Origin: Thermodesulfobacteriota bacterium
GTDB taxonomy: Bacteria > Desulfobacterota > Binatia > Bin18
Assembly: GCA_964291405.2 (NCBI GenBank)
Contig: OZ219926.1
Coordinates: 4,128,001-4,192,000, forward strand
Length of the DNA: 64,000 bases
Direction of reading: 5' to 3'
Shown here: in pieces, positions 12,044 to 63,254 of the stretch
How positions within the stretch are numbered: position 1 is the first letter of the stretch
How the letters are laid out: every line of letters begins with the position of its first letter
Notes under the pieces: generated by a model
The model's input: the letters and a program-made list of their open reading frames with translations, nothing else
What the model was told of the DNA's origin: nothing
Database searches by the model: none
Made by a program: the position numbers and the translations under genes

Positions 12044-12119
12044 ATCCGCCCTCCCTTACTTTTATTGGCACGGGATTATGGCGGGTCCGGCTCGATATTG
12101 TCAACGAAGGCGCTGATGT

Positions 12120-12716: not shown

Positions 12717-12819
12717 GGAGCGAAGAGCATAGCGTCTCTCCCGCTGCGGGGAAAGCTGACCAACTCCCGGTCGCGCGCTATCTCCTCCCCTACTCAGGCC
12801 GTGCCGAACCGCGTATAAG

Positions 12820-13281: not shown

Positions 13282-13285
13282 TGGT

Positions 13286-13774: not shown

Positions 13775-14496
13775 AGCCTCTCGTCAACCCAAAAGATGGT
13801 AGTCTGCTCGTCCGCATCCCCGCGGGCGAATATTGCATGGGAAGCGAGAGCGGGACGCCGCCCGAACGTCCGGCCCACCGGGTCTCGCTGGGGAGTTTTT
13901 ATATTGCCCAACACCCGGTGACGAATGCCCAGTACCGGCAGTTTGTCATCGACACTGGCCATCGTGCACCCTATCTCGATGATGCCCGGGTGGAACGTGA
14001 GAATTGGGACCAGGAGCGCCACGCTCCGCCGGCGGGGCGAGAAGCCCATCCGGTGGTCTTGGTCAGCTGGCATGATGCCCAGGCCTACTGCGCCTGGGCC
14101 GAGGGCCGGCTGCCAACCGAGGCCGAATGGGAAAGCGCGGCCCGTGGCGGGTTAGAAGACAAGCCCTATCCGTGGGGAGATGGGATCAGTCGGGAGTTGG
14201 CAAATTATGATAATCGGGCCGGGACCACCCCGGTCGGGAGCTATCCGTCCAATCCCTATGGTCTGTATGACATGGCCGGTAACGTCTGGGAGTGGGTGGC
14301 CGACTGGTACGACCCGCAGTACTATACAGTCTCCCCGACCGAGGACCCGCAGGGCTCGGCGACCGGAACGGTTAAGGTGTTGCGCGGAGGAGCCTGGCTG
14401 CTCTTCCCCGAGTTTTGCCGGGTTGCCTACCGCTTCCGCAACAACCCCAATTTTCGCTTCAATCTGATTGGCTTTCGTCTGGCGAAATCGGCCTGA
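13771..14496 (+). CDS. FGE-sulfatase (SUMF1/EgtB/PvdO) domain protein
   Basis: F/YxMG, VTNAQY, PVV.VSW.DA.AYC.W, RLPTEAEWE.AARG, NPYGLYDMAGNVWEW, RGG, GFR. Confidence 0.93.
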   Translation: MKPLVNPKDGSLLVRIPAGEYCMGSESGTPPERPAHRVSLGSFYIAQHPVTNAQYRQFVIDTGHRAPYLDDARVERENWDQERHAPPAGREAHPVVLVSWHDAQAYCAWAEGRLPTEAEWESAARGGLEDKPYPWGDGISRELANYDNRAGTTPVGSYPSNPYGLYDMAGNVWEWVADWYDPQYYTVSPTEDPQGSATGTVKVLRGGAWLLFPEFCRVAYRFRNNPNFRFNLIGFRLAKSA

Positions 14497-15952
14497 GCAG
14501 ACCCTCTTGATACAACTGGGCCAGGACCTGACGGACCTGGGCAGGCGGGCTCTGCCGCCCGTCGGGATGCCGCTGATAGGCGGCCAGGATATCCACAACG
14601 GCACGCTGCGTCTGCACGCAGCGCAGCAGGGTCGGGACATTGACTCCGGACAGAAAGCGCAGGCCGCGTGGGTAACGTGGAGTCACAACCGCGGGCCGGA
14701 GCTCAACATACGAGCCTTCGATAACAGGCCGCTCCTGGATACGCAGGTCAGGCGTTACCATTACGTGTGAAACCGGCTGGGAATCAAATGGAGAAAAGGC
14801 CGTGGACGGCTGCTGCGGAGCGGCGGGACCCGCGTCGGGCTCAAGGCGCAGGCAACGGTGCTGCCAAAAGGGACGGTCCGGCCAGCGACCCTCTTCCGCG
14901 TAATAGCGGGCCGATTGTTGATAGTGGCTGCGATAGGTGTCTCGCTGACCGGCTTCGTACAGCTCGGCAGCCTGGGACTGCATGACGGGCCGCTGGAGTA
15001 TGGTGTTGACAACCACGGCGCCGGTAATGGCGGATGCCATGGCTTTCCGGACTCCCTCCGAGGACAAGGGATCAATGAACAGGCCGGCGTCACCGACGAG
15101 GAGGGTGCGGCCGGCGACAAACTGCCGCGCGGTATACAGGCTGGCATCAAAAACCTGAGGTGGGTGGGGAAGGTGCGCGTCAGCCAGAAAACCCGAGACA
15201 TAGGCCGCCTTGCGGAGCTCCTCGATATAAAAGCGCTGTAGTCCGACCCGCTTTATGGCGTGGCTGTGTCGCCAGTCAAGCAGCAGCGTGACATTCCGCT
15301 CGCCCGTGTGCAGCGGGACTGACCAGACCATGCCGTCCGCATAGGCTTCAAGCAGGGTGTTGGCGAAGTCTACGCCGGGTGGATTCCCCGCGTTTTGCCA
15401 ATAGCCCGTCAGGGCCAGGGTCTGGAAGACACTGTCCCGCTGGCGCAGGTTGTGGCGGGCGTATATGCCCGCGTGGCCGGTCGCATCAACACAGAATTCC
15501 GCCCGAATGCGCTCTCTCGAACCATAGCGGACGGTCACGCCGTGTTCCCCGTCAGGCCGGACGTCTCGCACCGGTTGTCCTTCCACAACCCGGACACCGG
15601 CCTGGCGAGCCTGATTGAGCAGAATCAGGTCAAAGTCGGCGCGCACAGACTGAAACCCGCGCCGGTGGTGATCCGAGCTGTAATACGCGGTACGCGGTCG
15701 AGGCGAGCCCCAACACACGCTGTGGCCAGACATCCGCAGAAAGCCGGCCTGTTCCACCTGCGTCCGGACACCCAGAAAGTCGAGCAGGGGGAGGATACTC
15801 GGGGTCAGGGACTCTCCAATCTGGTGCCGTGGAAAACGGCGCTTCTCAATAAGCACGACCCGATAGCCGAAGCCCGCGAGTTGGTGGGCGATAGTCGCTC
15901 CGGCCGGACCGCCGCCAGCAACTACGATGTCTGCTGCGGAAGGGAGTGTCAC
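14459..15952 (-). CDS. qhpG: FAD-dependent monooxygenase, QhpG-like (Trp hydroxylation for CTQ)
   Basis: GGGPAG, FPR..IGESL, DATG, GDA..F.DPLSS.G halogenase-like fold; adjacent to qhp genes. Confidence 0.8.
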   Translation of the reverse strand: MTLPSAADIVVAGGGPAGATIAHQLAGFGYRVVLIEKRRFPRHQIGESLTPSILPLLDFLGVRTQVEQAGFLRMSGHSVCWGSPRPRTAYYSSDHHRRGFQSVRADFDLILLNQARQAGVRVVEGQPVRDVRPDGEHGVTVRYGSRERIRAEFCVDATGHAGIYARHNLRQRDSVFQTLALTGYWQNAGNPPGVDFANTLLEAYADGMVWSVPLHTGERNVTLLLDWRHSHAIKRVGLQRFYIEELRKAAYVSGFLADAHLPHPPQVFDASLYTARQFVAGRTLLVGDAGLFIDPLSSEGVRKAMASAITGAVVVNTILQRPVMQSQAAELYEAGQRDTYRSHYQQSARYYAEEGRWPDRPFWQHRCLRLEPDAGPAAPQQPSTAFSPFDSQPVSHVMVTPDLRIQERPVIEGSYVELRPAVVTPRYPRGLRFLSGVNVPTLLRCVQTQRAVVDILAAYQRHPDGRQSPPAQVRQVLAQLYQEGLLRPISPDESQSD

Positions 15953-16099
15953 GTCAGACTGCCAATGGCGAATCGTAGAATTGTTGCTTGGAGCTTATGC
16001 CGTCGGATCAGGAAGAGCAACACGAGGGCCGTGTCTATTTCGTCTCCGGCCAAGCTGCTGTACAGTCGGCCTGGTATTCGTCCTCTCAGGACTGTCGCT

Positions 16100-17839
16100 A
16101 TGCATATTGCCTCGGTACTCTCCCGTTTCTATCGGCTGTCGCCCTTTGTGAAGCCGTATGTGCGCAGAATCGGTTTCATCTTCCTCCTGTCCTCCTTTGG
16201 CACCGTTCTCGGTCTGCTCTGGCCGTTGTTTACCAAAATCCTGATTGACGATGTTTTGCTCGCACGCAACATATCGCTCTTGGTGACGCTGTGCGGGATC
16301 ATGCTGGGTGTCACGCTGCTCGGTTATGGGGTAGGGGCGATCAATCGCTATCTCTACACCCAGGTTACGGCACGCGTTTTATTTGCGCTCAGACAGCACC
16401 TCTTCGCCCATTTGCAGAAGCTCTCTCTCCGCTTCCATACCCAGGTCAAAGTGGGCGATCTCCTGTCGCGCCTGAATACCGATATTGCCGAGATTCAGTC
16501 CGTCCTCACCGACGCGGCCTTCACCTTTGTCACCAATATCTTCGTCCTGCTGGCAACCGTGGGATTTCTCATCTGGCTCAACTGGCGGCTCTTTCTGGTC
16601 AGCCTGCTCGTTATCCCGCTCCAAATATATGGGGTACGCAAAATACAGCCGTATATGGTCGAGGAAACCCGCAAGGTGCGCGAGTTGAACGCCTCGATTT
16701 CCGCCTTTCTGGTTGAGTCCCTGTCGGCCATCAAATTCGTCAAGCAGTTTGGTGCGGAGCCTACCCAATTGGGGCGTTTGGGCCGACTGGGTCAACGCTT
16801 TGTTGCGCTGGTGACACGGTTTGAAATGATCGGCTATATCGGCAGCACGACCGCGACGGCTACGACGTTTCTGGGCAGTACCCTGGTCACCCTCTACGGG
16901 GGCTATCTGGTGATTGAGGGCCAGATGAGTATTGGCAGTCTGGTTGCCTTCGCCGCCTACCAGTCGCGCGCCTTCAGTCCTATCCAGGTTCTAATGGACC
17001 TGTACCTACGCATCGAGCGGGCTGGCGTGTCCGTGGACCGGGTGTTCGAGTTTCTGGATATCGGACAGGAATATACCGAGCCGTCCGGCGGGACCTTACG
17101 CCCCGAAGGGCTACACGGGGAGATCGAATTTCGTGACGTATCGTTCGGCTATCAGACCAACGCTCCGGCCAGTCAGCCGGTGTTGCGTCAGGTGAGTTTT
17201 CTGGTGGGGGCCGGGCAGCGCCTGACCGTTCTGGGACCGAGCGGAACGGGCAAGTCCACGCTCGTCGACCTCCTGATACGGCTGTATGAGCCCCAGGCCG
17301 GGACCATCTGCCTGGACGGTCATGACGTGAGGGAGTTGGACCTGGTATGGCTACGTCAACATGTGGTCGTCATCGGCCACGAGCCCTTTCTATTTCACGC
17401 CTCGATTCTGGAAAACGTGTCGTACGCCAGCCCGGAGGCAAGCCGCGAAGAGATCGTTGCGGCGGTCACAGCAGTTGGCCTGCACGAGTATGTGACCACG
17501 TTGCCTGACGGTTACGAGACCACTGTGGGCGAACGGGGCACGCGCCTGTCGGCCGGACAGCGTCAGCGCATTGCCCTGGCCCGCGCCCTGCTCAAAAAGC
17601 CCCGGATTCTGGTGCTGGACGAAGCCCTGTCCGGCCTTGATGTCGAAAGCGAAGCCGACCTCCGTCAGACCTTGTCTGCGGTGATGCGAGGCTGCACGAC
17701 ACTCGTGGTGACCCATCGGTTGAGCTCTCTCCACGCCGACGATGCGGTTGTCGTGCTTAAGCACGGCGCGGTCGAGTGGCAGGGAACTTACCGGGAACTG
17801 ATCCGAGCGCCTGACATCTTACAGGCCGCCACCGGGTAG
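16100..17839 (+). CDS. qhpF: ABC exporter (TMD+NBD), QhpF-like
   Basis: TM domain, GPSGTGKST, LSAGQRQR, LDEA; likely start ATG 16100; qhp context. Confidence 0.82.
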   Translation: MHIASVLSRFYRLSPFVKPYVRRIGFIFLLSSFGTVLGLLWPLFTKILIDDVLLARNISLLVTLCGIMLGVTLLGYGVGAINRYLYTQVTARVLFALRQHLFAHLQKLSLRFHTQVKVGDLLSRLNTDIAEIQSVLTDAAFTFVTNIFVLLATVGFLIWLNWRLFLVSLLVIPLQIYGVRKIQPYMVEETRKVRELNASISAFLVESLSAIKFVKQFGAEPTQLGRLGRLGQRFVALVTRFEMIGYIGSTTATATTFLGSTLVTLYGGYLVIEGQMSIGSLVAFAAYQSRAFSPIQVLMDLYLRIERAGVSVDRVFEFLDIGQEYTEPSGGTLRPEGLHGEIEFRDVSFGYQTNAPASQPVLRQVSFLVGAGQRLTVLGPSGTGKSTLVDLLIRLYEPQAGTICLDGHDVRELDLVWLRQHVVVIGHEPFLFHASILENVSYASPEASREEIVAAVTAVGLHEYVTTLPDGYETTVGERGTRLSAGQRQRIALARALLKKPRILVLDEALSGLDVESEADLRQTLSAVMRGCTTLVVTHRLSSLHADDAVVVLKHGAVEWQGTYRELIRAPDILQAATG

Positions 17840-17861
17840 TGTTCGCACTTTTTCTCGCCTC

Positions 17862-18575
17862 TCACGTGTGACTCGTCTGTTGGAGATAGGTCCGGGCGGT
17901 TTCTGGCGTCAAGTCTGGGTGGCGCTCGGCCCGGAGGGCGAGCGTAGCGGCAATATGCGCTGAGGCAAAACTATGGCCGTAAAAGTTCTGCGTCTGGGCC
18001 GGGCCGGGCAGGGGGCGTGGATAGGGATGGGCACGAAAGGGAACCGGGCTGTCTGTGAGGGCGCGGTATTCGTCCCACGCGCAGCTTTCATCTGCGGCCA
18101 CGCCTATGACGCCGGGTAAGGTTGCGGGTAACACATCCGAGCGGTCCGGGGGAGAAGACGCAATCAGGATGAGCTTTGCTTCTTGTGCTTGGGCGACCAG
18201 GGCCGAGAGCGGCTGGCGATGCTGCGCGTTAATCATTCCCAGACTCAGACTGATGATTTTCATGCGCTGTCCAATGGCCCAGCCCAAGGCCGCTTCCAGA
18301 ACCGGAAATGAAGTGGCCAGATGGTCCGTAAAAATCTTAACCGCGTAGAGCTCGGCTTGGGGAGCTTTGGCACGGACCACCCCGGCGAGGGCGGTCCCGT
18401 GCCCGATGTGATCGGGGTACTCCGGGCTGGTCTGGACCTCGTTCTCCTCGTTCAAGAAAAAATGGATGCCGCCCGCGACGCTGCCAACATGCGAATGCTG
18501 GGCATTCACCCCGCTGTCGATAAGCGCGACTTTAACCCCCGCCCCGGTCGGCGCCCCGTCCCTGTCCTGACCCAT
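17862..18575 (-). CDS. qhpE: Subtilisin-like leader peptidase QhpE
   Basis: Small S8 protease with IDSG, HGT, GHSFAS triad; divergent from qhpA. Confidence 0.88.
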   Translation of the reverse strand: MGQDRDGAPTGAGVKVALIDSGVNAQHSHVGSVAGGIHFFLNEENEVQTSPEYPDHIGHGTALAGVVRAKAPQAELYAVKIFTDHLATSFPVLEAALGWAIGQRMKIISLSLGMINAQHRQPLSALVAQAQEAKLILIASSPPDRSDVLPATLPGVIGVAADESCAWDEYRALTDSPVPFRAHPYPRPLPGPAQTQNFYGHSFASAHIAATLALRAERHPDLTPETARTYLQQTSHT

Positions 18576-18660
18576 GCCTTGTCCCTTGTAAGCAAAGCAT
18601 ACCAAATATGCCCGTTTATGCGAGGGAGAAAATGGTATCTACAACTCCGGTTCTTTCCAT

Positions 18661-18688
18661 TTGACTCTCACTCAGAGAGGTATAGAAT
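18661..18688 (+). promoter_or_regulatory. Putative sigma70 promoter of qhpA1 operon
   Basis: TTGACT-16 nt-TAGAAT; overlapping CTCTC-N5-GAGAG inverted repeat. Confidence 0.45.
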
Positions 18689-18744
18689 CCGGCTACTGCG
18701 TCAGAGATGGAGACCAGTGTTTCAGCCTGGAGGAGAGGACAGGT

Positions 18745-20424
18745 ATGACGACCGGAAAAACATGGAAACGTATGAGAAGGCACATCTGGGTATTGCTCGT
18801 GTTGGCGGGGCTCGTTGGCACGACCCATGATGTCAAGGCTGCGGAACACCAGGCGACGCCTTCCGCCCGAGAAACGTTGGTGATCCGCTGTATACGTTGC
18901 CACGCGCCGCAAGGAGAGAATGGCAAGCTTGACGCGATTGAAGCCCAGCGCAAGTCACCCGAAGGCTGGAGCATGACGCTCAGCCGTATGGTCCGAACGC
19001 ACGGGGTCGAATTGCAGGACGGAGATGCCCGCATTCTGGTCAAATATCTGAGCGATCACTACGGGCTGGCTCCCAAAGAAGTCGAGCCCTATCGCTTTAT
19101 TCTCGAACAGCGCAATACCCGCACCACGCAGGACGTGCCCAAGCCCCTCCAGGCTGGCTGTATCCAGTGCCATACCTACGCACGGATCGCCTTGCAGCGC
19201 CGGACGCAGGACTCGTGGGAGCGGCTGCCGGACGCCAAGGTCGCACTCATGGCGAATATCGGCAGTGAGACCGCCTCCGCCGGCCAGTTGAAGGATTATT
19301 GGTTTGATGATGCAAAGAAAGCTGCGGTGCCCCATCTGATCGAGCACCAGCCGTTTGAGACCGAAGCCTGGACGGCCTGGCAGGCGGCCAAAAAGCCGAG
19401 CTATGCCGGTACTTGGCTGGTGGTTGGCCATGACCCCGGCCGCGGCGGGGATTACACCGGGCAACTCACGCTGACCGCCGGGGAGGACGATCAATACACT
19501 GGCACATTTTCCTACACGTTTGCCGACGGCTCTCGGATGGAAGGCTCCACGACCGGGACGATATACACCGGCTTCCAGTGGCGCGGCGTTGCCCAAGCCA
19601 AGGAAAGTGGACCGGCCGGCCGGGAGATGCGACAGCGCGAGATTTTCTTTGCCTCCGAAGACGGGAACACCGTTTCCGGCCGGCGCTTGCTGACCAACCT
19701 CGGCGACCTGGGCATGAATGAAACCTGGTATCGCCGCCGGGGCGGGGCGCAGCTGCTGACGGTCAGTCCAGCCATGATCCAAACCGGCTCTCCCCAGACA
19801 GTAAATATTTTCGGGATGGGCTTCTCCGGGGACACGCTGTCGGCGGATAAAATTTCTTTTGGCGAGGGCGTGGGGGTGTTGTCCCTGCGGCTCGATGGCA
19901 ACCAGACGATTGTGGCGGAAGTCTTTGCCAAGGCTGGCGTGGCAGAAGGGCTGCGCACGGTCTCCATTCAAGGGGTGGCGGGAACGGGGCAGGTCGCGGT
20001 CTACGAGGCGGTCGATTACATCCGCATCACGCCGGAACGGGGCTTCGCCCGGCCCGGCGGCATTCGGACGCCAAAAATTTTTCAGCAGTACGAAGTGGTA
20101 GGCTATGCGAACGGCCCGGATAACGCCAAGGGCACGGACGACGATGTCAAGCTGGGACGGATCGGCCCGGTCAAGTGGAATCTGGAAGAGTACGTGAAAC
20201 GTCCGAACGACGACGATATTCAGTATGTCGGTGCGGTCGACCAAACCGGCCTGTTTCACCCCAACGAGGATGGGCCGAATCCCAAACGCCACCTGATGGA
20301 AGGTAATGTGGGCGATGTCTGGGTGGAAGCCTGGTATACGCCCGAGGGCGAAAAACGACCCATGGGCGCGCGCGCCCACTTATTAGTGATGCCGGCCAAG
20401 TTTGTCTTCCCACCGATTGAATAG
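18745..20424 (+). CDS. qhpA: QHNDH alpha subunit (diheme c), copy 1
   Basis: CIRCH and CIQCH, RK.PEGW.MT..RM...HG, ARIALQRRT, NGPD...GT.DD, GPNP.R, C-terminal PPIE. Confidence 0.95.
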   Translation: MTTGKTWKRMRRHIWVLLVLAGLVGTTHDVKAAEHQATPSARETLVIRCIRCHAPQGENGKLDAIEAQRKSPEGWSMTLSRMVRTHGVELQDGDARILVKYLSDHYGLAPKEVEPYRFILEQRNTRTTQDVPKPLQAGCIQCHTYARIALQRRTQDSWERLPDAKVALMANIGSETASAGQLKDYWFDDAKKAAVPHLIEHQPFETEAWTAWQAAKKPSYAGTWLVVGHDPGRGGDYTGQLTLTAGEDDQYTGTFSYTFADGSRMEGSTTGTIYTGFQWRGVAQAKESGPAGREMRQREIFFASEDGNTVSGRRLLTNLGDLGMNETWYRRRGGAQLLTVSPAMIQTGSPQTVNIFGMGFSGDTLSADKISFGEGVGVLSLRLDGNQTIVAEVFAKAGVAEGLRTVSIQGVAGTGQVAVYEAVDYIRITPERGFARPGGIRTPKIFQQYEVVGYANGPDNAKGTDDDVKLGRIGPVKWNLEEYVKRPNDDDIQYVGAVDQTGLFHPNEDGPNPKRHLMEGNVGDVWVEAWYTPEGEKRPMGARAHLLVMPAKFVFPPIE

Positions 20425-20462
20425 CATGGTAGGGGTATAGGGACGGACTCTGGGAGGGCATA

Positions 20463-21926
20463 ATGGAATTACACTTCCGTGCGGAAAACGCCCACGCTAT
20501 AACGGAGGGCAACCAGAACATTCTGGTTGCGGCCAAAAGCATGTCCATGTTTGTCATGGACCCGGTCTCCCAGGCCGTCCTCGATTATGTGCAGGCGCAT
20601 CCGCACGCGATCCAGGAAGAGCTGACCGCCAGTCTGGCCGAGCACTTCCCGCTGGCCGAAATAACCGAGACGATCCAGGAATTTATCACCTTAGAAATCC
20701 TGCAAACCCAGGAGCGTTCCGCTACTCCCGCTCCCCTGCCGGTGCTCGACGTCGAGCATTTCCCGGTGAGTTCGCTCGTTGTCAACGTGGCCAATAAGTG
20801 TAACCTCCACTGCACCTACTGCTACGAACCCGAGGGGGCGAAATACGGCCCGTCGCCGGTCCAGATGGACTGGGAGACCGCGCGCGACAGCGTCGATTTT
20901 CTGTTCAAGAAGTCCGGCGCCAGCAAAGAGGTCAATTTGATTTTCTTTGGCGGAGAGGCGCTGCTGAACTTCAAGCTCATGCGTCGGACCGTCGCCTATG
21001 CGGAAGAAAAGGCCCAGGCCGAAGACAAGGTCGTCGACTTTTCGCTCACGACCAACGGAACGCTCTTAACCGACGAGGTAATCGACTTTTTCCAGGCCCA
21101 TCGCTTTGGCGTGACCATCAGCATTGATGGTCCCAAAGACCTGCACGACAAGCGGCGCGTTTTTCTTACAAAGCGGGGCGAACAGAAAGGCTCGTACGAT
21201 CTCTTACGGCCCCGCCTGGAACGCCTGCTGGAACGCTATACGGTCAGGCCGGTGGTCGCCCGGGTCACGGTCACAAAAGACGCCATCGATATCGTGCGCA
21301 CCTACGAGCATCTCACGCAGCTCGGTTTTTTTGAGGTTGGCTTTTCGCCGGTCACCGCCCAGGCCGAGACCGACTATGGCTTGGAGCCGGCCGATTTGCG
21401 TGAATTGCTGCGGCAGTTTCGCGAGCTTGGCGCGGTGTATATCGAGCGGGCGCTCAACCAGCAGTACACCGGGTTTTCAAATTTGAGCACCATGCTGACC
21501 GACATTCACCTGGGCACAAACAAGCTCTTTCCGTGCGGGGCCGGCCTGGGCCTGTTGGACGTGGACGGCAACGGTGATGTGTATTTATGTCATCGGTTTC
21601 CGGGCACCGAGGAACAAAAATACGGCAATGTCAAAGACGGCATTCAGTACGACCGGCTGAACGCCTTTATCAACGGTGCCCATCTGGGCAATAAGCCGGT
21701 ATGTCAGACCTGTTGGATTCGGGGCCTGTGCGGCGGCGGGTGCTACCACGAAGCCATGACCGAGTTTGGGGACACGGCACTGCCGAATCTGCACTACTGC
21801 GATTTCTTGCGGGAATGGACGGAATACGGCATTGGCGTGTATATGCAGTTGCAAGAACAAACCCCTGGGTTTGTCGAGCAGTATGTGTTACGCGGGCGTG
21901 GAGACGCCCCAAAAGAATTAACCTAA
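20463..21926 (+). CDS. qhpD: Radical SAM/SPASM thioether-forming maturase
   Basis: N-terminal RRE-like region, CNLHCTYC, PCGAG...LCHRF, C..C.....CGGGCYHEA; between qhpA and qhpC. Confidence 0.95.
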   Translation: MELHFRAENAHAITEGNQNILVAAKSMSMFVMDPVSQAVLDYVQAHPHAIQEELTASLAEHFPLAEITETIQEFITLEILQTQERSATPAPLPVLDVEHFPVSSLVVNVANKCNLHCTYCYEPEGAKYGPSPVQMDWETARDSVDFLFKKSGASKEVNLIFFGGEALLNFKLMRRTVAYAEEKAQAEDKVVDFSLTTNGTLLTDEVIDFFQAHRFGVTISIDGPKDLHDKRRVFLTKRGEQKGSYDLLRPRLERLLERYTVRPVVARVTVTKDAIDIVRTYEHLTQLGFFEVGFSPVTAQAETDYGLEPADLRELLRQFRELGAVYIERALNQQYTGFSNLSTMLTDIHLGTNKLFPCGAGLGLLDVDGNGDVYLCHRFPGTEEQKYGNVKDGIQYDRLNAFINGAHLGNKPVCQTCWIRGLCGGGCYHEAMTEFGDTALPNLHYCDFLREWTEYGIGVYMQLQEQTPGFVEQYVLRGRGDAPKELT

Positions 21927-21939
21927 GGGAGAGTGTGGG

Positions 21940-22281
21940 ATGAAACACCTCAAGGCAGCGAACTCCAAGGCCCGGGCCGTCACCGCCAGTGTGGCACAAG
22001 CGACTTCCACCGAGGAAGACGTTATCGGGATGGCCCAACCCATCGGTTGTACGACGATCTTCAATCCGGGCTGGGAGGCGAATCCGTGGGGTGGAGCCAG
22101 CAGCATGTGCGCCCCCATGGAGGCCGACCTGCTGAGCTGTGCGAATCTGTGCTGGTGGCCGGCTCAGGTGCCGGACAGCCTCCAGAGTGCTCCCGAGTGG
22201 GCGAAAGGCTGCTCGGGCATGAATCAGGAAGACTGGCGCAACCTCGACGTTGTTTTCCCCAAGACCGATACGTCCGGATAA
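21940..22281 (+). CDS. qhpC: QHNDH gamma subunit precursor, copy 1
   Basis: MKHLK..N.KA leader; core GCTT.F.PGWE...C.PMEADL..C...CWWPAQVPD. Confidence 0.95.
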   Translation: MKHLKAANSKARAVTASVAQATSTEEDVIGMAQPIGCTTIFNPGWEANPWGGASSMCAPMEADLLSCANLCWWPAQVPDSLQSAPEWAKGCSGMNQEDWRNLDVVFPKTDTSG

Positions 22282-22306
22282 ACGCAGCGGGCGGAAGGAG
22301 CCGGTG

Positions 22307-23398
22307 GTGCACGGGAAAAACAGGCCGCTGCTGGGGGGTGTGCTCTTTGTGTTCGGACTGCTGGTCCTGCCGCAGACGACCTGGGCCAAGTGGTACCTCC
22401 TGGCCAGCACGCATCCCAACAACCTGGTCGTCGTCGATACCGAAACCGACACGGTGGTCAAAGACATTGCCCTTGAGGGTCGTGGGCCGGCGCTCTATAT
22501 CGCGCCAAACCCGGCCCAGCCGCAGTTCGCCTATGTCGTAAATAATCTGGCCAAAAGCGTTGCCATGGTCGATCTGGACGAGGGCAAGCAGGTCAAAAGC
22601 TTTGACTTGTCGAGCGACAACGAGCTCGTACGCACCATGGCGATCGATGTGAACATGCAGGGCACCCGGCTGTTCGTGCACGAAATGCCGGTTCAGCAAG
22701 ACATGGGCCGCTATACGGCCCGGGACAACCGGATACGGGTCATTGACCTGGAGACCAATGAGACGCTGACCACGTTTACCGCTCCCCGCCAGGTGATGGG
22801 ATTAGCCTCTTCAAAAGACGGCAAACGCCTCTATCTGTTCAGCGTCGGTCAGGACATTTTTGTGCACAGCACGGAAGACGGCAGCCTACTCGATGTCATT
22901 CCGCTGGCAAACCGCAACATCAGCGGCATTGCGAGAACCGACGGCCTGCCGCTCGGCGGGACCTATCAGGAAAGCGGCCACCTCGTCTCTTTCGGGACCT
23001 TCACCACCGATTCCATCACCAATCAGGTGACGCTCGGTATCGGCTCTCTCGACCTGACTCAGGAAGACCCGGAACTGAAGGTCGTTGAATTGCAGCCTTT
23101 TGTCGAAGGCGATTATGTGCTCACGGGTGCGCTGTCGCCGCATACGAACAAGGCCTATTTCGCATACAACAGTTTGTGGAAGGTTGACCCGAAAACCCGT
23201 CACATTGAGAAAAAGGTGTCGCTGTCCAACACCTATTTTGCGCCGCTCGTTCACCCCGAAGGCAAGAAGGTCTACTGCGGCAGCAACTGGCACGATGTCG
23301 CGGTCTACGACGCGGAATCACTCGACCTGATCACCAAAGTCCCCCTGGGCCATTCGCAGACCGGAGGGGTCAGTGTCTTGCGGTTTGTGAATCGTTAG
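22307..23398 (+). CDS. qhpB: QHNDH beta subunit (beta-propeller), copy 1
   Basis: Signal peptide, HPNNL.VVD, PRQV propeller repeats, follows qhpC; GTG start after AGGAG. Confidence 0.88.
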   Translation: MHGKNRPLLGGVLFVFGLLVLPQTTWAKWYLLASTHPNNLVVVDTETDTVVKDIALEGRGPALYIAPNPAQPQFAYVVNNLAKSVAMVDLDEGKQVKSFDLSSDNELVRTMAIDVNMQGTRLFVHEMPVQQDMGRYTARDNRIRVIDLETNETLTTFTAPRQVMGLASSKDGKRLYLFSVGQDIFVHSTEDGSLLDVIPLANRNISGIARTDGLPLGGTYQESGHLVSFGTFTTDSITNQVTLGIGSLDLTQEDPELKVVELQPFVEGDYVLTGALSPHTNKAYFAYNSLWKVDPKTRHIEKKVSLSNTYFAPLVHPEGKKVYCGSNWHDVAVYDAESLDLITKVPLGHSQTGGVSVLRFVNR

Positions 23399-23406
23399 CG
23401 CCCGGT

Positions 23407-24039
23407 ATGTCTCGGACGATACTTACCCGCCGAAATGTTCTCCAGGGGATCGGCACCGCCGCCCTTCTCGGCCAGGCGTACAGTCTGGCGCATGCCGTTG
23501 AAAAAGGCGACGCCGCCAGCTTCGCCTCGGTTGTGAAACGCCGGCGCATGATCCGTAAGTACGAGGACAGGCCGGTCCCTGAAGAAGAGATCCGAGCGCT
23601 GCTGCGCTACGCCGTGCGTGCGCCCAGCGCGGGGAATCTACAGCCGTGGGAGTTTATTCTGGTGCGTGACACCGAGGTCCGAGACCAACTCGCCAAGGCG
23701 GCGATGAATCAGAACTCGGTTGCCACCGCGCCGATTATTGTTGCCACCTGTGCCGATATCCAACGCATGGGTGAGAAATACGGCACGCGCGGCGCTTTTT
23801 ATAGTTTAGTGGATACCGCGTTTGCCTCATTACTCATTTTGTTAGGCGCAACCGAGCGCGGGCTCGGGGCCTGCTTTGTTGGCGCGTACAATCCGGAAGA
23901 AGTCGCCAAGATATTGCAACTGCCCAGCCACGTCCGTCCGGTCGGACTCATCACCCTCGGTTATCCTGCGGAAAAGCCACGCAAACCGACGAACAAGAAA
24001 ATCCCGCTCGAGAACCTGATCCACGAGAATACGTGGTAG
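23407..24039 (+). CDS. Nitroreductase family flavoprotein with Tat signal
   Basis: TRRNVL..AHA signal; RR.IRKY, APSAGNLQPWEF, GLGACFVG, LGYPAE. Confidence 0.9.
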   Translation: MSRTILTRRNVLQGIGTAALLGQAYSLAHAVEKGDAASFASVVKRRRMIRKYEDRPVPEEEIRALLRYAVRAPSAGNLQPWEFILVRDTEVRDQLAKAAMNQNSVATAPIIVATCADIQRMGEKYGTRGAFYSLVDTAFASLLILLGATERGLGACFVGAYNPEEVAKILQLPSHVRPVGLITLGYPAEKPRKPTNKKIPLENLIHENTW

Positions 24040-24175
24040 GCGCGGGAATCGTATCCCTCTTATTTTTTGTTACACAGGAGGCTTGTCTGTTGACAGTGCT
24101 TTTTGTAGTGGACTATAGGCGGTAGTAGGTGTTGAGCACAGGTGAGGACGAGCGAAGAGTGATTGCAGGGCTGTA

Positions 24176-25840
24176 ATGGAGGGCATGATCATGAACGCTA
24201 TATGGGGGAGACGTGGTCGACTAAGCGGATACCTCTTGAGCCTCTTCTTGGGCTTCACGCTCTGTTTTGCAGGACAACCCGCGTGGAGCCAGGAGATGAC
24301 CGGGCCGGCTTTGCTGGAGACGCGTTGCTCGGGTTGTCATCCTCCTCATGAAGAAGGGGGCAAGCTTGACGCGATCGAACATCAGCGCAAGCCCCCCGAA
24401 GCCTGGGAGATGACTATCTATCGCATGTTGCGCACCCACGGAGCGAATCTGGAAGCGGGTGAGGCTCGCATCCTGATCAAATACCTGAGCGATCAGTATG
24501 GCCTGGCACCGGCGGAAGTCAAACCCTTTCGGTATGCCTTAGAGAAACGGAACAATACGATAGAAAAACATGTTCCCAAGGAAGTGAAGGGCACCTGTGT
24601 GGCCTGTCACTCCTATGCGCGGATCGCCCTGCAGCGCCGTACGCCCGAATCGTGGGGGCGTCTGCCGGACCTGACCGCGGCCTTGCTGCCGAATATCGAA
24701 AACCAGGTCGCCTCAACGGGGCTGCTGGGCGACTTCTGGTACACGCTGGTGCGGAAGGATACCGTCCCCTATCTGGCGCAGACCTATCCGTTTGACTCAG
24801 CCTCTTGGAGGCAGTGGCAGGCCAAGCCCAAACCGGACTACGCCGGGGTCTGGAATGTGGTCGGTCACGACCCTGGAAAGGGCGGGGCCTACACCGGCCG
24901 GATGACGCTGACCGCGTCGGGGAACGATAACTACGAGGGCCAGCTCGCGTATGACTTTGCCGATGGGTCGCGTATGACCGGGAAAAACACTGTGACGATG
25001 TATACCGGCTTCCAGTGGCGGGGTGTGGCCGAGGTCGAGGGCGGCAAGACCCACAAAGAAATCTTTTTTGCCAATGAGGACGGAACGGTCGTAAGCGGGA
25101 GGCGGTTGCTGACGCTTGTTGGCGATCTGGGCATGGAAGAGACCTTATACCGGAATACGGGCCAGGCAAAATTTTTGGCCGTCAGCCCGGCCGCGCTCAA
25201 AGTCGGCGAGCGCTCCACGCTCAGGCTGTTTGGCATGAACCTCCCCGAGTCCCTGACCGCGGCTTCGATCTCTCTGGGAACGGGTGTGACGGTTCAGTCT
25301 CTGCGGAGGGTTGATGCTGATACGGTCATGGCCGACGTGGTAGTGGGGAAAAAGGCAAAAGTAGGCGCTCGACAGGCTCGGATTCGGGGAGTTGATGGGG
25401 AACAGTCGCTGGCCGTCTACGATACGGTTGACTATATCCGTCTCTCTCCGGAACAGGCGTTTTCTCGGCCTGGTGGCATTCGCACCCCCAAAATTTTTCA
25501 GCAGTTTGAGGCGGTCGGATATACAAATGGTCCGGACGGACGAAAGGGAACTGACGACGATATGAAGCTGGGACGTGTCGGTCCGGTGACGTGGAAGCTG
25601 AACGAGTACGTGCGGCGCGTCAATGATGACGATGTGCGCTTTGTCGGTGCCATGGATGCCCACGGTCTTTTTACGCCGGCCGAGGACGGTCCAAATCCAA
25701 AACGGCACTTGCAGCAGGGCAATGTCGGCGATGTCTGGGTGGAGGCCTGGTATCGGCCAAATGGCGCCCGTCGGCCTATGGGAGCGCGCGCCCACCTGCT
25801 GGTCATGCCGGCAAAGTATAATTTTCAACCGATTGAATAG
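24176..25840 (+). CDS. qhpA: QHNDH alpha subunit (diheme c), copy 2 (start may be 24185/24191)
   Basis: CSGCH and CVACH; colinear paralog of copy 1. Confidence 0.95.
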   Translation: MEGMIMNAIWGRRGRLSGYLLSLFLGFTLCFAGQPAWSQEMTGPALLETRCSGCHPPHEEGGKLDAIEHQRKPPEAWEMTIYRMLRTHGANLEAGEARILIKYLSDQYGLAPAEVKPFRYALEKRNNTIEKHVPKEVKGTCVACHSYARIALQRRTPESWGRLPDLTAALLPNIENQVASTGLLGDFWYTLVRKDTVPYLAQTYPFDSASWRQWQAKPKPDYAGVWNVVGHDPGKGGAYTGRMTLTASGNDNYEGQLAYDFADGSRMTGKNTVTMYTGFQWRGVAEVEGGKTHKEIFFANEDGTVVSGRRLLTLVGDLGMEETLYRNTGQAKFLAVSPAALKVGERSTLRLFGMNLPESLTAASISLGTGVTVQSLRRVDADTVMADVVVGKKAKVGARQARIRGVDGEQSLAVYDTVDYIRLSPEQAFSRPGGIRTPKIFQQFEAVGYTNGPDGRKGTDDDMKLGRVGPVTWKLNEYVRRVNDDDVRFVGAMDAHGLFTPAEDGPNPKRHLQQGNVGDVWVEAWYRPNGARRPMGARAHLLVMPAKYNFQPIE

Positions 25841-25930
25841 GGATTGAACAAACCCTGGCGTTAGAGCGAGCAGTATGCTACGAGGCTGGGAGGAGACGCG
25901 AGAGTTTCCGGTCAGCGCAAGGAGGGCGTG

Positions 25931-26263
25931 ATGAAACACCTCAAGGCCGCGAACCATAAAGCGCATAGAGTCGAGACCGCCCCCGCGGCCAAACGGCAGG
26001 TGCCGGAAGACGTTCTGGGCATGGCCCAGCCGATGGGCTGCACCACGATTTTTAACCCCGGCTGGGAGGCGAACCCCTGGGGCGGCACCGCGGGCATGTG
26101 CGCGCCAATGGAGGCTGACCTGCTCGGCTGTGCCAATGTGTGTTGGTGGCCGGCTCAGGTGCCCGACAGCCTGCAAAACTACCCGGAGTGGGCCAGTGCC
26201 TGTTCGGGTGTCAACGCCGAGGACTGGCGTAGCTTGGAGCTGGTCTTCCCCGAGAAGAAATAG
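25931..26263 (+). CDS. qhpC: QHNDH gamma subunit precursor, copy 2
   Basis: MKHLKAANHKA leader; GCTTIFNPGWE...CAPMEADLLGCANVCWWPAQVPD. Confidence 0.95.
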   Translation: MKHLKAANHKAHRVETAPAAKRQVPEDVLGMAQPMGCTTIFNPGWEANPWGGTAGMCAPMEADLLGCANVCWWPAQVPDSLQNYPEWASACSGVNAEDWRSLELVFPEKK

Positions 26264-26315
26264 CCGCAGAGTACCGTCTCAAAATCCGTGCGGTGAATAA
26301 CGAGGGGTTTCCAGT

Positions 26316-27140
26316 ATGAACCCTGGGCAAAGACAGCGTCTGTGGAGCCGAGGCGTTTTCTTTGCGGGACTGTTCCTGCTCCTGCACGGGTTCCCTCCGC
26401 TCGTTGAGGCGGACTGGTATATCGCCTCGACAACCATCCCACCGAACTCCTCCGCTTCTGCTTGGCGTCCTCCTCAGGTTGTGACGCGTGTTGCCCGGAA
26501 CCGACTGACCTACGAGACCCGAGCCTGGACGCAAATTATCGACCTCAACACGCAGCAGCTCTCGATTATCAGCCATCTGGGACAGGTGTACTGGCAGGGA
26601 CCAATCGAGGCCTACGCCACGGTTATGGCAGCGCGCACCCAGGAACGGCGGGCGCAGGCGGAACGCTTGATGAACCAGCTCCCTCATGGGCCACAACAAT
26701 TCGTGACAAGACGAGCCGGTCCGTTTGATAGCCTGAGCCCCAGGCTGACGATTACGATCACCCCGATGTCGGAGACCGAGTCGGTCGCCGGGTATACGGC
26801 TCACAAATATCGTATCCAGCGGAACGGCATCGCGTATGAAGAAACCTGGTTGGCTGAGAAGATCAAGCTGGGGACGGATGTTGATATGTCCCGGCTGAAC
26901 GCGTTTATCGACAAGCTGCAAACTTCTCGAACGACGCCGCCAGGAGCTGTGCTCGCCGAATTAACCGAGCTGATCAATATAGGCTACCCAGTCAGGACCG
27001 TGAACCTGGTCACCCAGGTGGTCAAGGAAGTGGTCCAGGCCGAGCAGCGGCCGATTCGGGCTGAGGTATTTATGGTGCCGGATGGCTATACCAAAAAGGC
27101 GCTGGTCGAGATCATGTTTCCAACAAGGAGGCGTTTATGA
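26316..27140 (+). CDS. Exported DUF4412-like protein
   Basis: Signal peptide; IIDL....L.I..H, ETE.VAGY...KY, E.W.A, GYP, F.VP.GY.K pattern. Confidence 0.65.
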   Translation: MNPGQRQRLWSRGVFFAGLFLLLHGFPPLVEADWYIASTTIPPNSSASAWRPPQVVTRVARNRLTYETRAWTQIIDLNTQQLSIISHLGQVYWQGPIEAYATVMAARTQERRAQAERLMNQLPHGPQQFVTRRAGPFDSLSPRLTITITPMSETESVAGYTAHKYRIQRNGIAYEETWLAEKIKLGTDVDMSRLNAFIDKLQTSRTTPPGAVLAELTELINIGYPVRTVNLVTQVVKEVVQAEQRPIRAEVFMVPDGYTKKALVEIMFPTRRRL

Positions 27141-28240
27141 AGGGCAAGAGTCTGTTATGGGCAGTGTCAACGCTGAGTGCGCTGGTCCTCGTTTGTAGTC
27201 TACCCGGCCTGGTGTGGGCCAAATGGTATATCCTGACCGGCGCCCATCCGAACTCCGTGTATGTGATTGATGCGGAAACCGATACGGTCGTGAAGACCAT
27301 CCCGCTTGAGGGAAAAGGGCCCATCTTTACCGTGGCGCCGAATCCAGCCCGACCCCAGTTCGCCTATGCGGTCACCAACCTCAGCCAAAGCGTGGCCCTG
27401 GTTGACCTGGACGAGGGAAAAGAGGTCCTGCGCTTTAATCTCTCCAACGACAACGAACTGGTCAGGACCATGGCCATTGATGTCAACCCGCAGGGCAATC
27501 GCCTCTACATCCATGAAATGCCGTTGAAGAAAGACCTGGGCAAATACGAGATACTGGAGACCCGCATCCGAGTCATCGATCTGGACACCAATACGGTCGC
27601 CAATGTGTTCCCCGCCCCCCGTCAGGTGATGGCGCTGGCGTCGTCCCAAGACGGGAAAAAGCTGTACGCCTTTAGCGTGGGCAGAGATATCTCGGTGCTG
27701 AATCCAGAGACGGGTCAGGTCGAGGACGTTATCCCCATGGCGGACTGGAACGTGACCGGCGCCGGCAAGCTGGAGGGACTGCCCTTGTGGAACCCCTATC
27801 AGGAAAACGACTACCTGGCCTCGTTTGCCGTGTATATGACGGACACGATTACCCAGCATGCCACCGTTGGAGTAGCCACCCTTGACCTCAAGCAGGCCAA
27901 TCCGGAGCTGCAAGTGGTTGAGCTTCAGCCCTATGAGGCCGAATGGTGGACGGCCCACGGGGCGGTATCGGCCAAAACCCAGAAGGCCTATCTCGGCTGG
28001 GACAAGCTGTGGAAGATGGATATCGCGACGCGCCAGATGGAAGAAGTGAGGCAGTTCGACACCAACAGTGTCTTCGGCTCTTTTCTCCATCCCGATGGGA
28101 CCAAAGTCTACTGCGGTGGAAACTGGAGTGCGTTGTCCGTGTTTGACGCCGACACGCTCAAGCCTCTCAAGAAGATTGATCTGGGGCACTCCCAAGCCGG
28201 TGCGGGTATCCGGTTTGTCAACCGCGAGAATGGGTTCTAA
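27137..28240 (+). CDS. qhpB: QHNDH beta subunit, copy 2
   Basis: Clear paralog of 22307-23398 (WAKWY.L..HPN, SNDNELVRTMAIDVN, LGHSQ). Confidence 0.88.
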   Translation: MKGKSLLWAVSTLSALVLVCSLPGLVWAKWYILTGAHPNSVYVIDAETDTVVKTIPLEGKGPIFTVAPNPARPQFAYAVTNLSQSVALVDLDEGKEVLRFNLSNDNELVRTMAIDVNPQGNRLYIHEMPLKKDLGKYEILETRIRVIDLDTNTVANVFPAPRQVMALASSQDGKKLYAFSVGRDISVLNPETGQVEDVIPMADWNVTGAGKLEGLPLWNPYQENDYLASFAVYMTDTITQHATVGVATLDLKQANPELQVVELQPYEAEWWTAHGAVSAKTQKAYLGWDKLWKMDIATRQMEEVRQFDTNSVFGSFLHPDGTKVYCGGNWSALSVFDADTLKPLKKIDLGHSQAGAGIRFVNRENGF

Positions 28241-28282
28241 CCGGAACACGCCGCAGCCCCCTGGGTAGCGCGGTAGACGGGA

Positions 28283-29449
28283 GTGCTGATGCAATACGAT
28301 CTACTCCTCAAAGGCGGTCAGGTCATTGACCCCGGCTGGCCGCAGTACCACACACTCCAGCCCGCAGATGTGGCGATTCGGAACGGCAAGATAGCGGCCG
28401 TCGCCGCCGACATCCCCGCAGACCAAGCGGCCCGCGTGCGCGAGGTGTCCGGTCATATTGTCTGTCCTGGGTTGATCGACATTCACGCCCACACCTTTGT
28501 GAACGCCCACGATATGGGCGCCGAAACCGATCGGCGCTGTGCCGCGAGTGGGGTGACCACGCTGATTGACGCCGGCAGCGCCGGTTCAGCCACCTTCCCC
28601 GGACTGCGGCAGTATGTGGCCAATACGAGCGAAGTCCGGCTGCGCTGTTTCATTCATCTGTCAGCCCTGGGTCTGATTCACCTTCGGGTCGGAGAGCTGA
28701 TGCATATGGACTATGCCGACCCTGAGGGCTGTGCGCGCACGATTGCGGACAACCGCGACCTTGCCATAGGCGTCAAGCTGCGCTTCAGCAATAACGTCGT
28801 GCCGGACGCCGCCGGGACCGAACCGCTGCGTCTCGCCCGCCAGGCGGCCGATATGGCAGGCGTGCCATTGATGGTGCATATTACCGACGCGCTGCTGCCG
28901 GTCCCGCGGATTTTAGAATTCCTCAAGCCGGGCGATGTGGTGACCCACTGCTTCCACGGGTTTGCATACGGCATCATGGGACCGGAAAAGAAAGCCATTC
29001 TCAAAGAAGTCTGGGCGGCCCAGAAAGAGGGGATTATTTTTGACTGCGCGCACGGGCGCATGCACTTTCCGTTTCCGTTTGTCCGGCAGGCCCTGGACGC
29101 GGGATTTTTGCCCGACACGATCGCGACCGACCTGACGCTCCCCAGCGCGACCAGAGGGCCGGTCTTTGATCTGCCGACGACCATGTCCAAGCTCCTCAAC
29201 CTGGGCATGAGTCTGGAAGACGTGATCCGCTGCGTTACCACCAATCCCGCCCGCGTGATCGGGGAGGCTGAGCAAATTGGAACGCTCAGGCCCGGTGCCA
29301 CTGCCGATGTCGCCGTGCTCAGCCTTGAACAGGGAGAATTCGACTTTGTCGATACCGACCAGAACCATATGACCGGCGAGAAAAAGCTAGTCGCCCAGCT
29401 AACGGTCAAAGATGGACGGGTGTGGTATCAGGCCGACCGAGCGAGATAA
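28283..29449 (+). CDS. Amidohydrolase/deacetylase (dihydroorotase-like) family
   Basis: PGLIDIHAH, GVTT..DAGSAG, GVKLR, MVH, THCFHG, TD metal-binding motifs. Confidence 0.9.
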   Translation: MLMQYDLLLKGGQVIDPGWPQYHTLQPADVAIRNGKIAAVAADIPADQAARVREVSGHIVCPGLIDIHAHTFVNAHDMGAETDRRCAASGVTTLIDAGSAGSATFPGLRQYVANTSEVRLRCFIHLSALGLIHLRVGELMHMDYADPEGCARTIADNRDLAIGVKLRFSNNVVPDAAGTEPLRLARQAADMAGVPLMVHITDALLPVPRILEFLKPGDVVTHCFHGFAYGIMGPEKKAILKEVWAAQKEGIIFDCAHGRMHFPFPFVRQALDAGFLPDTIATDLTLPSATRGPVFDLPTTMSKLLNLGMSLEDVIRCVTTNPARVIGEAEQIGTLRPGATADVAVLSLEQGEFDFVDTDQNHMTGEKKLVAQLTVKDGRVWYQADRAR

Positions 29450-29658
29450 GGTGGTCTGGCGGGGGCCATCCAGGGTAAGCCTGCTGGCTGTCGTTATCGC
29501 TCTTCTGGCCATGCTGCACTGACTCCCCCTATCGTCCCTAATGAAGTTCGTTGACGGCCCCTCTCATACGCCTTTCGCTGGCACGACTGTGGCGGACATG
29601 GTAAGCAGACATCCACGCCAGCCCGTGTTTAAGCGGGCTGTACTGTAAGGAGGACCGC

Positions 29659-30120: not shown

Positions 30121-30136
30121 CGAGAGAGGGGAGAGT

Positions 30137-44605: not shown

Positions 44606-44623
44606 AGCCTTCTATCCCATTTC

Positions 44624-62986: not shown

Positions 62987-63054
62987 TTGGTTGACGAGCG
63001 TCAGGACAGTTTGTACCTGATTGTCAGATCATGACTCCACAGGAGGACAGAGGA

Positions 63055-63246: not shown

Positions 63247-63254
63247 GAGGGCAG

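Follow-up and report, generated by a model that had tools for sequence, protein, structure and literature searches.

Two diverged sets of quinohaemoprotein amine dehydrogenase genes and one set of maturation genes in a Binatia bacterium

Quinohaemoprotein amine dehydrogenase (QHNDH) is a textbook case of an enzyme subunit that is built like a RiPP (a peptide made on the ribosome and then modified after translation), and its biochemistry rests on proteobacterial operons with a single set of structural genes. This article describes a qhp locus with two such sets, located in a 64,000-nucleotide stretch of DNA (hereafter the window) from a Thermodesulfobacteriota bacterium assigned to the Binatia (GenBank assembly GCA_964291405.2, contig OZ219926.1, positions 4,128,001 to 4,192,000). 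Between window positions 14459 and 29449 the genes for the alpha, gamma and beta subunits (qhpA, qhpC and qhpB) occur twice, whereas the maturation genes occur once. The question raised by this arrangement is what the second set (set 2) encodes and how its gamma precursor, QhpC2, would be matured. The answer favoured here is that set 2 probably encodes a second isozyme served in trans by the single maturation line.

QhpF acts as the exporter of the qhp pathway. According to the accessible part of PMC7876137, the source of the qhp operon description used here, QhpD introduces the cross-links of QhpC and QhpG dihydroxylates the Trp precursor of cysteine tryptophylquinone (CTQ) in the cytoplasm, QhpE removes the leader, and QhpD, QhpE and QhpG each act only once (single-turnover).

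Two sets of structural genes and one maturation line

Gene calls were based on the listing of open reading frames (ORFs) and on Pfam and NCBIfam profile searches, the likely starts being re-assessed separately, and every gene named in a preliminary description of the locus was recovered at or near the position assigned to it (Table 1). A tblastn search of the 64-kb window with all cluster proteins returned one copy each of qhpG, qhpF, qhpE and qhpD against two each of qhpA, qhpB and qhpC, with no further copy of the four maturation genes; the two diverged structural sets with single qhpD, qhpE, qhpF and qhpG that had been described were thus borne out by both kinds of search. The exporter gene owes its name to its cluster position and domains, as the searched libraries hold no QhpF-specific model. 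Both alphas, both gammas, QhpD, QhpE and QhpG exceeded the NCBIfam equivalog cut-offs.

Each alpha subunit (A1 and A2) carries all four QHNDH alpha Pfam domains and exactly two CxxCH motifs, a number also found in 76 of 80 alpha ORFs, the remaining four being fragments. The count of haem-binding motifs is canonical in both, and the haem change of the preliminary description is not upheld. A2 aligned over its full length with solved alpha chains (E 3e-80 to 1JMX_A and 1.2e-79 to 1JJU_A), and the beta subunit B2 along its whole length with the solved beta chain 1JJU_B (residues 31-363, E 1.3e-35). Both beta genes occupy the canonical place after qhpC, which in set 2 means after an intervening gene for a DUF4412-like protein. 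By every sequence test except the equivalog cut-off of the beta subunit, both sets are QHNDH.

The two gamma precursors (C1 and C2) share the N-terminal motif MKHLKAAN-KA--V, variants of which occur across the aligned QhpC sequences, and the junction GMAQP[IM]GCTT, in which the inferred cleavage site follows the Gly, the mature N-terminus being placed by alignment to 1JJU_C. Residues C7, E16, C27, D33, C37, C41, W43 and D49 are kept in both (C2 aligned to 1JJU_C and 1JMX_G) and were invariant in all 82 gamma ORFs sampled. Judged by position, Cys7, Glu16, Cys27, Asp33, Cys41 and Asp49 would take part in the thioethers, and Cys37 and Trp43 would form the CTQ. The cores are near-identical around the cofactor, with a handful of differences such as S/G before Cys37 and L/V before Cys41.

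Both gammas also carry a fifth Cys (EWA-x-x-C-S-G) that the solved Paracoccus and Pseudomonas gamma chains lack. It was found in 72 of the 82 gamma ORFs, with Ala in nine of alphaproteobacterial type and one sequence truncated, and an Asp lies seven residues past it in 81. Taken from this sample of sequences, the fifth Cys is a feature of most of the family, and the gamma-peptide change once thought special to the locus is not. A fourth gamma cross-link, via this Cys, is conceivable.

Conservation, position and origin of set 2

A genome scan with one genome per species gave at least 595 confirmed relatives, of which the best 80 loci (L001 to L080) were kept, each defined as 10 kb either side of qhpD; all ORFs of these loci and of the window were translated and searched with the window proteins. 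Among the best 80 loci and the window, two copies each of qhpA, qhpB and qhpC were found only in the window, L001 (from OY763426.1) and L008 (from OY282457.1), the last two having the same twin layout as the window. Twin sets are rare in this sample, in keeping with the unusual character that had been ascribed to the locus. Forty-six of the 80 loci have 8 kb or more of sequence to each side of qhpD: 11 of Binatia type, two of them twins, and 35 others with no twin. L062 was considered as a further twin and rejected, its two alpha ORFs covering query residues 45-324 and 324-552 and representing one split gene. Three pairs of metagenome alpha clusters whose longest contigs are equal in length, P0124/P0228 (22672 bases), P0128/P0158 (77570) and P0132/P0175 (23144), hint indirectly at more twin loci.

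The Binatia-type group comprises L001-L013 and L027 (14 of the best 80 loci), with QhpD 65-95% identical to that of the window; the other 66 loci, from Acidobacteriota, Gemmatimonadota and Proteobacteria, reach 41-47%. A gap is also seen among the 120 QhpD relatives listed, 68 of which are at least 60% identical and the next best 49%, and the named ones among these 120 are Candidatus Binatia or 'Deltaproteobacteria' metagenome bins. Record titles of the 14 Binatia-type loci read Binatia, Binatota or Binataceae in nine cases, delta proteobacterium in three, and Verrucomicrobiia (L010) and Methylomirabilota (L027) in one each. The Binatota-titled L053, for its part, carries a cluster of alphaproteobacterial type; the mismatches between title and cluster in L053, L010 and L027 reflect either gene transfer or mis-binned contigs. 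In terms of sequence, both window sets belong to a well-separated QHNDH clade whose members come mostly from Binatia genome bins. The common order in its nearer loci is FGE-like (+), qhpG (-), qhpF (+), qhpE (-), followed by qhpA, qhpD, qhpC, qhpB and a nitroreductase gene, all on the plus strand. The window DNA is about 89% identical to L001, L002 and L008 over 11 kb, which agrees with its assignment to the Binatia; neither the alpha nor the beta tree settles the branching order of these four closest genomes.

All set-2 genes have intact frames in the three twin species. Between the window and L001/L008 the synonymous divergence (dS) of all genes was 0.28-0.49, set 2 spanning 0.36-0.49 and set 1 together with the maturation genes 0.28-0.48, and the similar values fit co-inheritance of both sets since the common ancestor of the three species. 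The ratio of non-synonymous to synonymous divergence (dN/dS) was 0.12-0.14 for A1, 0.07 for C1 and 0.11-0.15 for B1 (0.05-0.19 over the structural genes of set 1 and the maturation genes); in set 2 it was 0.14-0.17 for A2, 0.04-0.09 for C2, 0.16-0.17 for the DUF4412-like gene and 0.045-0.054 for B2. Both sets are under purifying selection (0.04-0.20 overall), and the decay of one of them, which the preliminary description had considered as a way in which its reading might fail, was not seen.

The two sets of the window are 56% identical in alpha, 72% in gamma and 53-54% in beta. A1 resembles the alphas from L003 (76%) and L004 (69%) more than it does A2, and B1 resembles the betas from L004 (81%), L007 (70%), L005 (68%) and L027 (63%) more than it does B2. 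The alpha tree (77 rows) gave support 100 both to a Binatia-type clade of 17 rows and to the A2 trio, and 98 to the A1 lineage of nine rows; in the beta tree (29 rows) the corresponding values were 99 for a Binatia-type clade of 16 rows, 100 for the B2 trio and 99 for a set-1 lineage of nine rows. Solved-structure sequences were left out of both trees. Constraining the B1 and B2 sequences from the four closest genomes to a single clade cost 63.7 log-likelihood units (approximately unbiased (AU) test, p-AU 4.5e-7, for a group named after the tree had been seen). A recent tandem duplication of set 1 as the source of set 2 is ruled out by the identities, the trees and the AU test; judged by these comparisons, set 2 is a separate, deep sub-lineage inside the Binatia-type clade and not a recent copy of set 1. 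In a FastTree of 139 alphas, A2 fell in a 93-row clade with the only alpha of L027 (support 92). An origin from an L027-type lineage was not adopted, as the beta tree places L027 with the set-1 lineage (support 99). Set 2 would be either an old paralogue that survives only here or a cassette from an unsampled Binatia-type lineage.

Set 2 runs in the order qhpA2, qhpC2, the DUF4412-like gene and qhpB2, and genes for a radical-SAM enzyme, a monooxygenase, an exporter and a protease are all missing from it. Between the stop of the nitroreductase gene and the start of A2 the window has 151 nt; in L001 (14313-15644, minus strand) and L008 (13678-15021, minus strand) a gene for a helix-turn-helix (HTH) and N6/N4 DNA methylase protein lies between the two. 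Upstream of A2, the window, L001 and L008 have kept CTGTTGACA, followed after 16-18 nt by CTATAGG, within sequence that has otherwise diverged; L001 and L008 have 16 nt between TTGACA and TATAGG where the window has 18. This element is absent from the output of the automatic scan because its second hexamer ends in G. We infer that it is the promoter of the cassette, and set 2 appears to be separately transcribed. A reading of both sets as a single colinear operon is not upheld, given this element and the opposite-strand methylase gene that separates the sets in L001 and L008.

In L002, the place of set 2 and of the amidohydrolase gene that follows it in the window is taken by some 4.1 kb of DNA that is unrelated and contains a DDE transposase remnant (14996-15991, plus strand), and L004 has an AccI-type endonuclease and methylase pair between qhpD and qhpC (11691-14376, plus strand). 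The stretch past qhpB is thus liable to gain and lose DNA. As the amidohydrolase gene is ancestral at this spot and is also missing from L002, it is simpler to suppose that L002 has lost set 2. A search for direct or inverted repeats around set 2 in the three twin genomes yielded only short pairs of 14-26 nt inside genes, none of them bracketing the cassette, and no att-like site was found. The GC content is flat across the region (0.58-0.63), with no compositional sign of recent transfer.

Proposed maturation of the second gamma subunit

In the proposed scheme the set-1 cluster would make a periplasmic QHNDH with CTQ, and the same enzymes would process QhpC2: QhpD would cross-link it, QhpG hydroxylate it, QhpF export it and QhpE trim it, after which the trimmed gamma-2 would join alpha-2 and beta-2 as a second isozyme. 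Sharing of the maturation line is plausible from the sequence since C1 and C2 have the leader motif, the junction and the eight residues in common. Separate regulation of set 2, a different amine range and a periplasmic helper role for the DUF4412-like protein, whose modelled fold resembles LolA, may accompany it. That set 2 encodes a second isozyme with its gamma matured in trans by the single QhpD/G/F/E line is, on these grounds, the probable reading. One pipeline for two CTQ enzymes had already been put forward in the preliminary description, and this part of it retains the support of the intact sets, the purifying selection and the shared gamma leader and core.

Several points weigh against this reading. 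As QhpD, QhpE and QhpG are reported to be single-turnover enzymes, one line would become limiting if both sets were expressed together. The copy number of the maturation genes is known from the 64 kb of the window and, for L001 and L008, from 10 kb either side of qhpD, and a second qhpD/E/F/G elsewhere is possible. The cassette is not essential, given that L002, a close relative (QhpD 94% identical), lacks it. B1 (173.1 bits) and B2 (181.2 bits) score under the TIGR03907 equivalog cut-off of 223.2. The promoter-like elements are consensus matches only, and the automatic scan, with 5 such sites against 4.8 expected in shuffles (terminator-like sites, 18 against 14.4), carries no information by itself. 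The choice of the AU-test group after the tree belongs here as well.

The alternatives differ in what they leave of this scheme. Set 2 might be a regulatory or dosage isozyme, with an amine range essentially that of set 1 and expression under other conditions, a possibility that deserves to be kept in mind: the gamma cores are near-identical around the cofactor, and set 2 has its own promoter-like element and is dispensable in L002. Identities of 56% in alpha and 53% in beta nevertheless leave ample room for an altered substrate channel, and set 2 has an extra gene under purifying selection, the DUF4412-like one, that set 1 lacks; neither point is a test of the range. Were set 2 to depend for its maturation on another qhpD/E/F/G set in some other part of the genome, nothing would be shared. 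This appears unlikely, as no second copy is present in the 64 kb or in the L001 and L008 loci and as the two gamma leaders have the N-terminal motif and the junction in common; in its favour, the search covered only the window and 10 kb either side of qhpD, and the longest contigs of the QhpD clusters P0008 and P0021 are equal in length (81891), so that contigs with two qhpD genes may exist.

A further alternative is mixing of subunits between the sets, for instance gamma-2 with alpha-1 and beta-1, so that more than two forms of the enzyme would arise. The gammas, 72% identical overall and with a near-identical core, would allow it, but in each of the three genomes both sets retain a full trio of their own, alpha, beta and gamma, and the alpha and beta trees place set 2 alike, as expected for a trio evolving as a unit, and such mixing seems quite improbable. 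Most improbable of all, and already disfavoured, is that set 2 is an inactive passenger, the remnant of a transferred cluster stripped of its maturation genes. The variable spot in which it lies (methylase in L001 and L008, transposase remnant in L002, amidohydrolase missing from L002 and L008) could suggest as much; its four genes, however, have stayed intact across three species (dS 0.36-0.49, dN/dS 0.04-0.17), and the catalytic and cross-link residues and both haem motifs are all kept.

Accessory genes, neighbourhood and relation to known systems

The preliminary description had attached three accessory genes to the twin layout, and only one of them belongs to it. The nitroreductase gene follows qhpB in the window and in L001, L002, L004, L005, L007, L008 and L027, five of these seven loci being single-set; a twin-arginine motif (S/T-R-R-x-hydrophobic-L-Q), a hydrophobic stretch and an A-x-A site were recognized by inspection in all eight orthologues. 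The amidohydrolase gene lies directly after it in the single-set L005 and L007; in L027, also single-set, the distance is about 5 kb, and genes for an SDR, a DUF1329 (LolA_like) and a DUF1302 protein occupy the interval (15058-19018); the amidohydrolase gene is missing from L002 and L008. As single-set relatives also carry them, nitroreductase and amidohydrolase are features of the lineage, not tied to the twin layout. The DUF4412-like gene, found among the loci only in the three twins and always between C2 and B2, alone among the accessories travels with set 2.

The DUF4412-like protein has an N-terminal hydrophobic helix, and its PF14371 match covers model positions 89-191 only; 71 of 81 aligned relatives also match this family. 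Its subfamily is small (29 clusters at E <=1e-10), and four of the clusters have a longest contig equal in length to that of qhp proteins: P0407 (77570; two alphas and QhpD), P0413 (35860; QhpD and alpha), P0415 (37725; alpha) and P0406 (5537650; a QhpD fragment). This suggests, indirectly, that the association with qhp genes extends past the three twin genomes. A single-sequence AlphaFold2 model (pLDDT 41.8) was set aside in favour of one from an 81-row alignment (pLDDT 87.9), which shows an open beta-sheet fold resembling LolA and RseB. Foldseek returned 14 PDB matches at E <=1e-3 with TMq of only 0.27-0.41, including the N-terminal part of PNGase F-II, LolA, RseB, VioE and ependymin-related proteins. 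As a lead only, the model points to a periplasmic or membrane-anchored, LolA-like protein, possibly a carrier of hydrophobic ligands. A complex prediction of QhpB2 (29-367) with the DUF4412-like protein (31-274) scored 0.01 against a mark of 0.32, which gives no answer, and nothing was drawn from it. The DUF1329 gene of L027 is another LolA-like accessory gene near a qhp cluster.

The gene for a protein of the FGE-sulfatase fold is convergent with qhpG and overlaps it, and adjoins it also in L001, L002, L004, L008, L009, L011, L013 and L027, in two gene orders. The protein has no visible signal peptide and gave sub-threshold NCBIfam matches only, to GldK, EgtB, SenA and PvdO. It is a candidate for an extra maturation factor because relatives make C-S bonds or oxidise Cys.

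These genes enter a wider reading, in which one QhpD/G/F/E line would serve two separately regulated CTQ enzymes despite single turnover and three helpers unknown from the studied qhp operons would have been recruited: the cytoplasmic FGE/EgtB-like protein as a candidate for the unexplained Cys-Trp bond or a modification of the fifth Cys, the Tat-exported nitroreductase-fold flavoprotein after qhpB, and the LolA-like DUF4412 protein, which would hand hydrophobic amines to the second enzyme. Taken as a whole, this combination is doubtful.

Table 1. Features of the qhp locus, in window coordinates
Feature	Position	Strand	Basis and remarks
FGE-sulfatase-fold protein (EgtB/PvdO/GldK-like), 241 aa	13771..14496	+	PF03781, 233.8 bits
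qhpG, flavin monooxygenase	14459..15952	-	NF049967, 287.3 bits (cut-off 240)
qhpF-like ABC exporter (permease and ATPase)	16100..17839	+	ABC_membrane, ABC_tran; ORF open from 15395, likely start ATG 16100
qhpE, subtilisin-like leader protease	17862..18605	-	NF049966, 168.5 bits (cut-off 165)
Promoter-like site TTGACT-16-TAGAAT, divergent qhpE/qhpA1 spacer	18661..18688	+	10/12 consensus matches; consensus match only
qhpA1, dihaem alpha, set 1	18745..20424	+	TIGR03908, 419.5 bits (cut-off 274.35); ORF from 18661, likely start ATG 18745, preceded by GGAGGAGAGG
qhpD, radical-SAM/SPASM thioether maturase	20463..21926	+	TIGR03906, 548.7 bits (cut-off 453)
qhpC1, gamma precursor, set 1 (leader and CTQ-bearing core)	21940..22281	+	NF037958, 129.7 bits (cut-off 50)
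Fifth Cys of gamma-1, C-terminal part	approx. 22100-22120		Protein alignment
qhpB1, putative beta-propeller, set 1	22304..23398	+	TIGR03907, 173.1 bits; ORF from 22250, likely start GTG 22304
Nitroreductase-fold flavoprotein, twin-arginine signal	23407..24039	+	PF00881, 113.3 bits; 8 nt past qhpB1
Promoter-like element TTGACA-N18-TATAGG upstream of qhpA2	24090..24119	+	Three-genome alignment
qhpA2, dihaem alpha, set 2	24191..25840	+	TIGR03908, 450.1 bits (cut-off 274.35); ORF from 24176
qhpC2, gamma precursor, set 2	25931..26263	+	NF037958, 135.5 bits (cut-off 50); ORF from 25928
Fifth Cys of gamma-2, C-terminal part	approx. 26090-26110		Protein alignment
DUF4412-like protein	26316..27140	+	PF14371, 26.3 bits (cut-off 21.6); 4-nt overlap with qhpB2
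qhpB2, putative beta-propeller, set 2	27137..28240	+	TIGR03907, 181.2 bits
Amidohydrolase/deacetylase-family metallohydrolase	28289..29449	+	NF006689, 384 bits (cut-off 371); ORF from 28283; no visible signal peptide

An Rfam scan of positions 12000-31000 gave 0 matches at gathering scores. No AraC-type (HTH_18) domain was matched in the window ORFs scanned with Pfam, several small ORFs being without any match, which agrees with the earlier remark that qhpR is missing from the window; the gene may sit outside it.

Other window genes were recorded around the cluster. A three-subunit molybdenum hydroxylase of the xanthine dehydrogenase/aldehyde oxidase type (2Fe-2S, FAD and molybdenum cofactor (MoCo) subunits) is encoded 15 kb downstream (44123-47892, minus strand) and could oxidise aldehydes. 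A VKOR-DsbA fusion (6062-7321, minus strand) and a DsbA-like thioredoxin-fold protein (7697-8116, minus strand) are encoded 6-8 kb upstream. Four luciferase-like monooxygenase genes (4148-5188, 37213-38271, 50214-51293 and 56198-57316) and two EthD-domain genes (5360-6031 and 39626-40309) are also present. Genes for a pentapeptide-repeat protein, an N6/N4 DNA methylase and a GIY-YIG nuclease stand in a row at 60129-63677 (plus strand), where GC falls to 0.54 in 60-62 kb, possibly a mobile or defence islet.

The core order A-D-C-B of the window is that of the qhpADCBEFGR operon of Paracoccus denitrificans and Pseudomonas putida (1JJU, 1PBY, 1JMX, 1JMZ). Common to both are the four-domain dihaem alpha, the beta (in the window a putative propeller), QhpD, QhpG, QhpE and the ABC exporter, as well as the three Cys-to-Asp/Glu thioether positions and the Cys37/Trp43 pair of the gammas. 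A hand count on printed alignments puts the identity with the solved chains at roughly 35-40% in alpha, about 30% in beta and about 55% in the core of gamma. The window differs from the studied operon in its second A/C/B set without maturation genes, in the absence of an AraC-type qhpR from the window, in the Tat-nitroreductase gene after qhpB, the FGE-like gene by qhpG and the DUF4412-like gene in set 2, in the fifth Cys of its gammas and in the beta scores under the NCBIfam cut-off. The single-set Binatia-type clusters L002, L004, L005, L007 and L027 have the order of window set 1 and a QhpD 74-94% identical, but within 10 kb to each side of qhpD they carry neither a second A/C/B set nor a gene of the DUF4412-like kind.

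RiPP clusters exist in which one radical-SAM/SPASM maturase serves several precursor peptides, and reviews treat QhpD among maturases of this kind. The window resembles these in having one maturase gene and two precursor genes that share a leader motif, and differs from them in that the product is the subunit of a redox enzyme and that the second precursor has partner subunits of its own and an apparent promoter.

No description of twin qhp sets or of QHNDH in Binatota was found in the literature searched, which lay outside the subscription papers of the Osaka group (possibly with gene-order surveys), and DUF4412 was not mentioned in the literature searched. In the accessible part of PMC8262859, the chief genomic survey of the Binatota, the word 'quinohemoprotein' occurs 0 times, and the accessible parts of PMC5023235 and PMC2147049 deal with single qhp clusters only. 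The locus is best regarded as an unusual arrangement of a known enzyme family, in which a probable isozyme cassette has been added to a lineage-specific version of a known cluster; 'undescribed system', the term in which the preliminary description overstated its case, is too strong.

If set 2 is simply an isozyme, the locus represents an ordinary paralogue gain in an accessory region. Should its two diverged precursors share one radical-SAM enzyme, one flavoprotein, one protease and one exporter, it would be a natural system in which to test how QhpD, QhpG and QhpE recognize leader and core and how single-turnover maturation enzymes are budgeted between two clients. Possibly more useful is the recognition of a well-separated QHNDH clade, mainly from Binatia bins, with conserved extra genes and a fifth gamma Cys.

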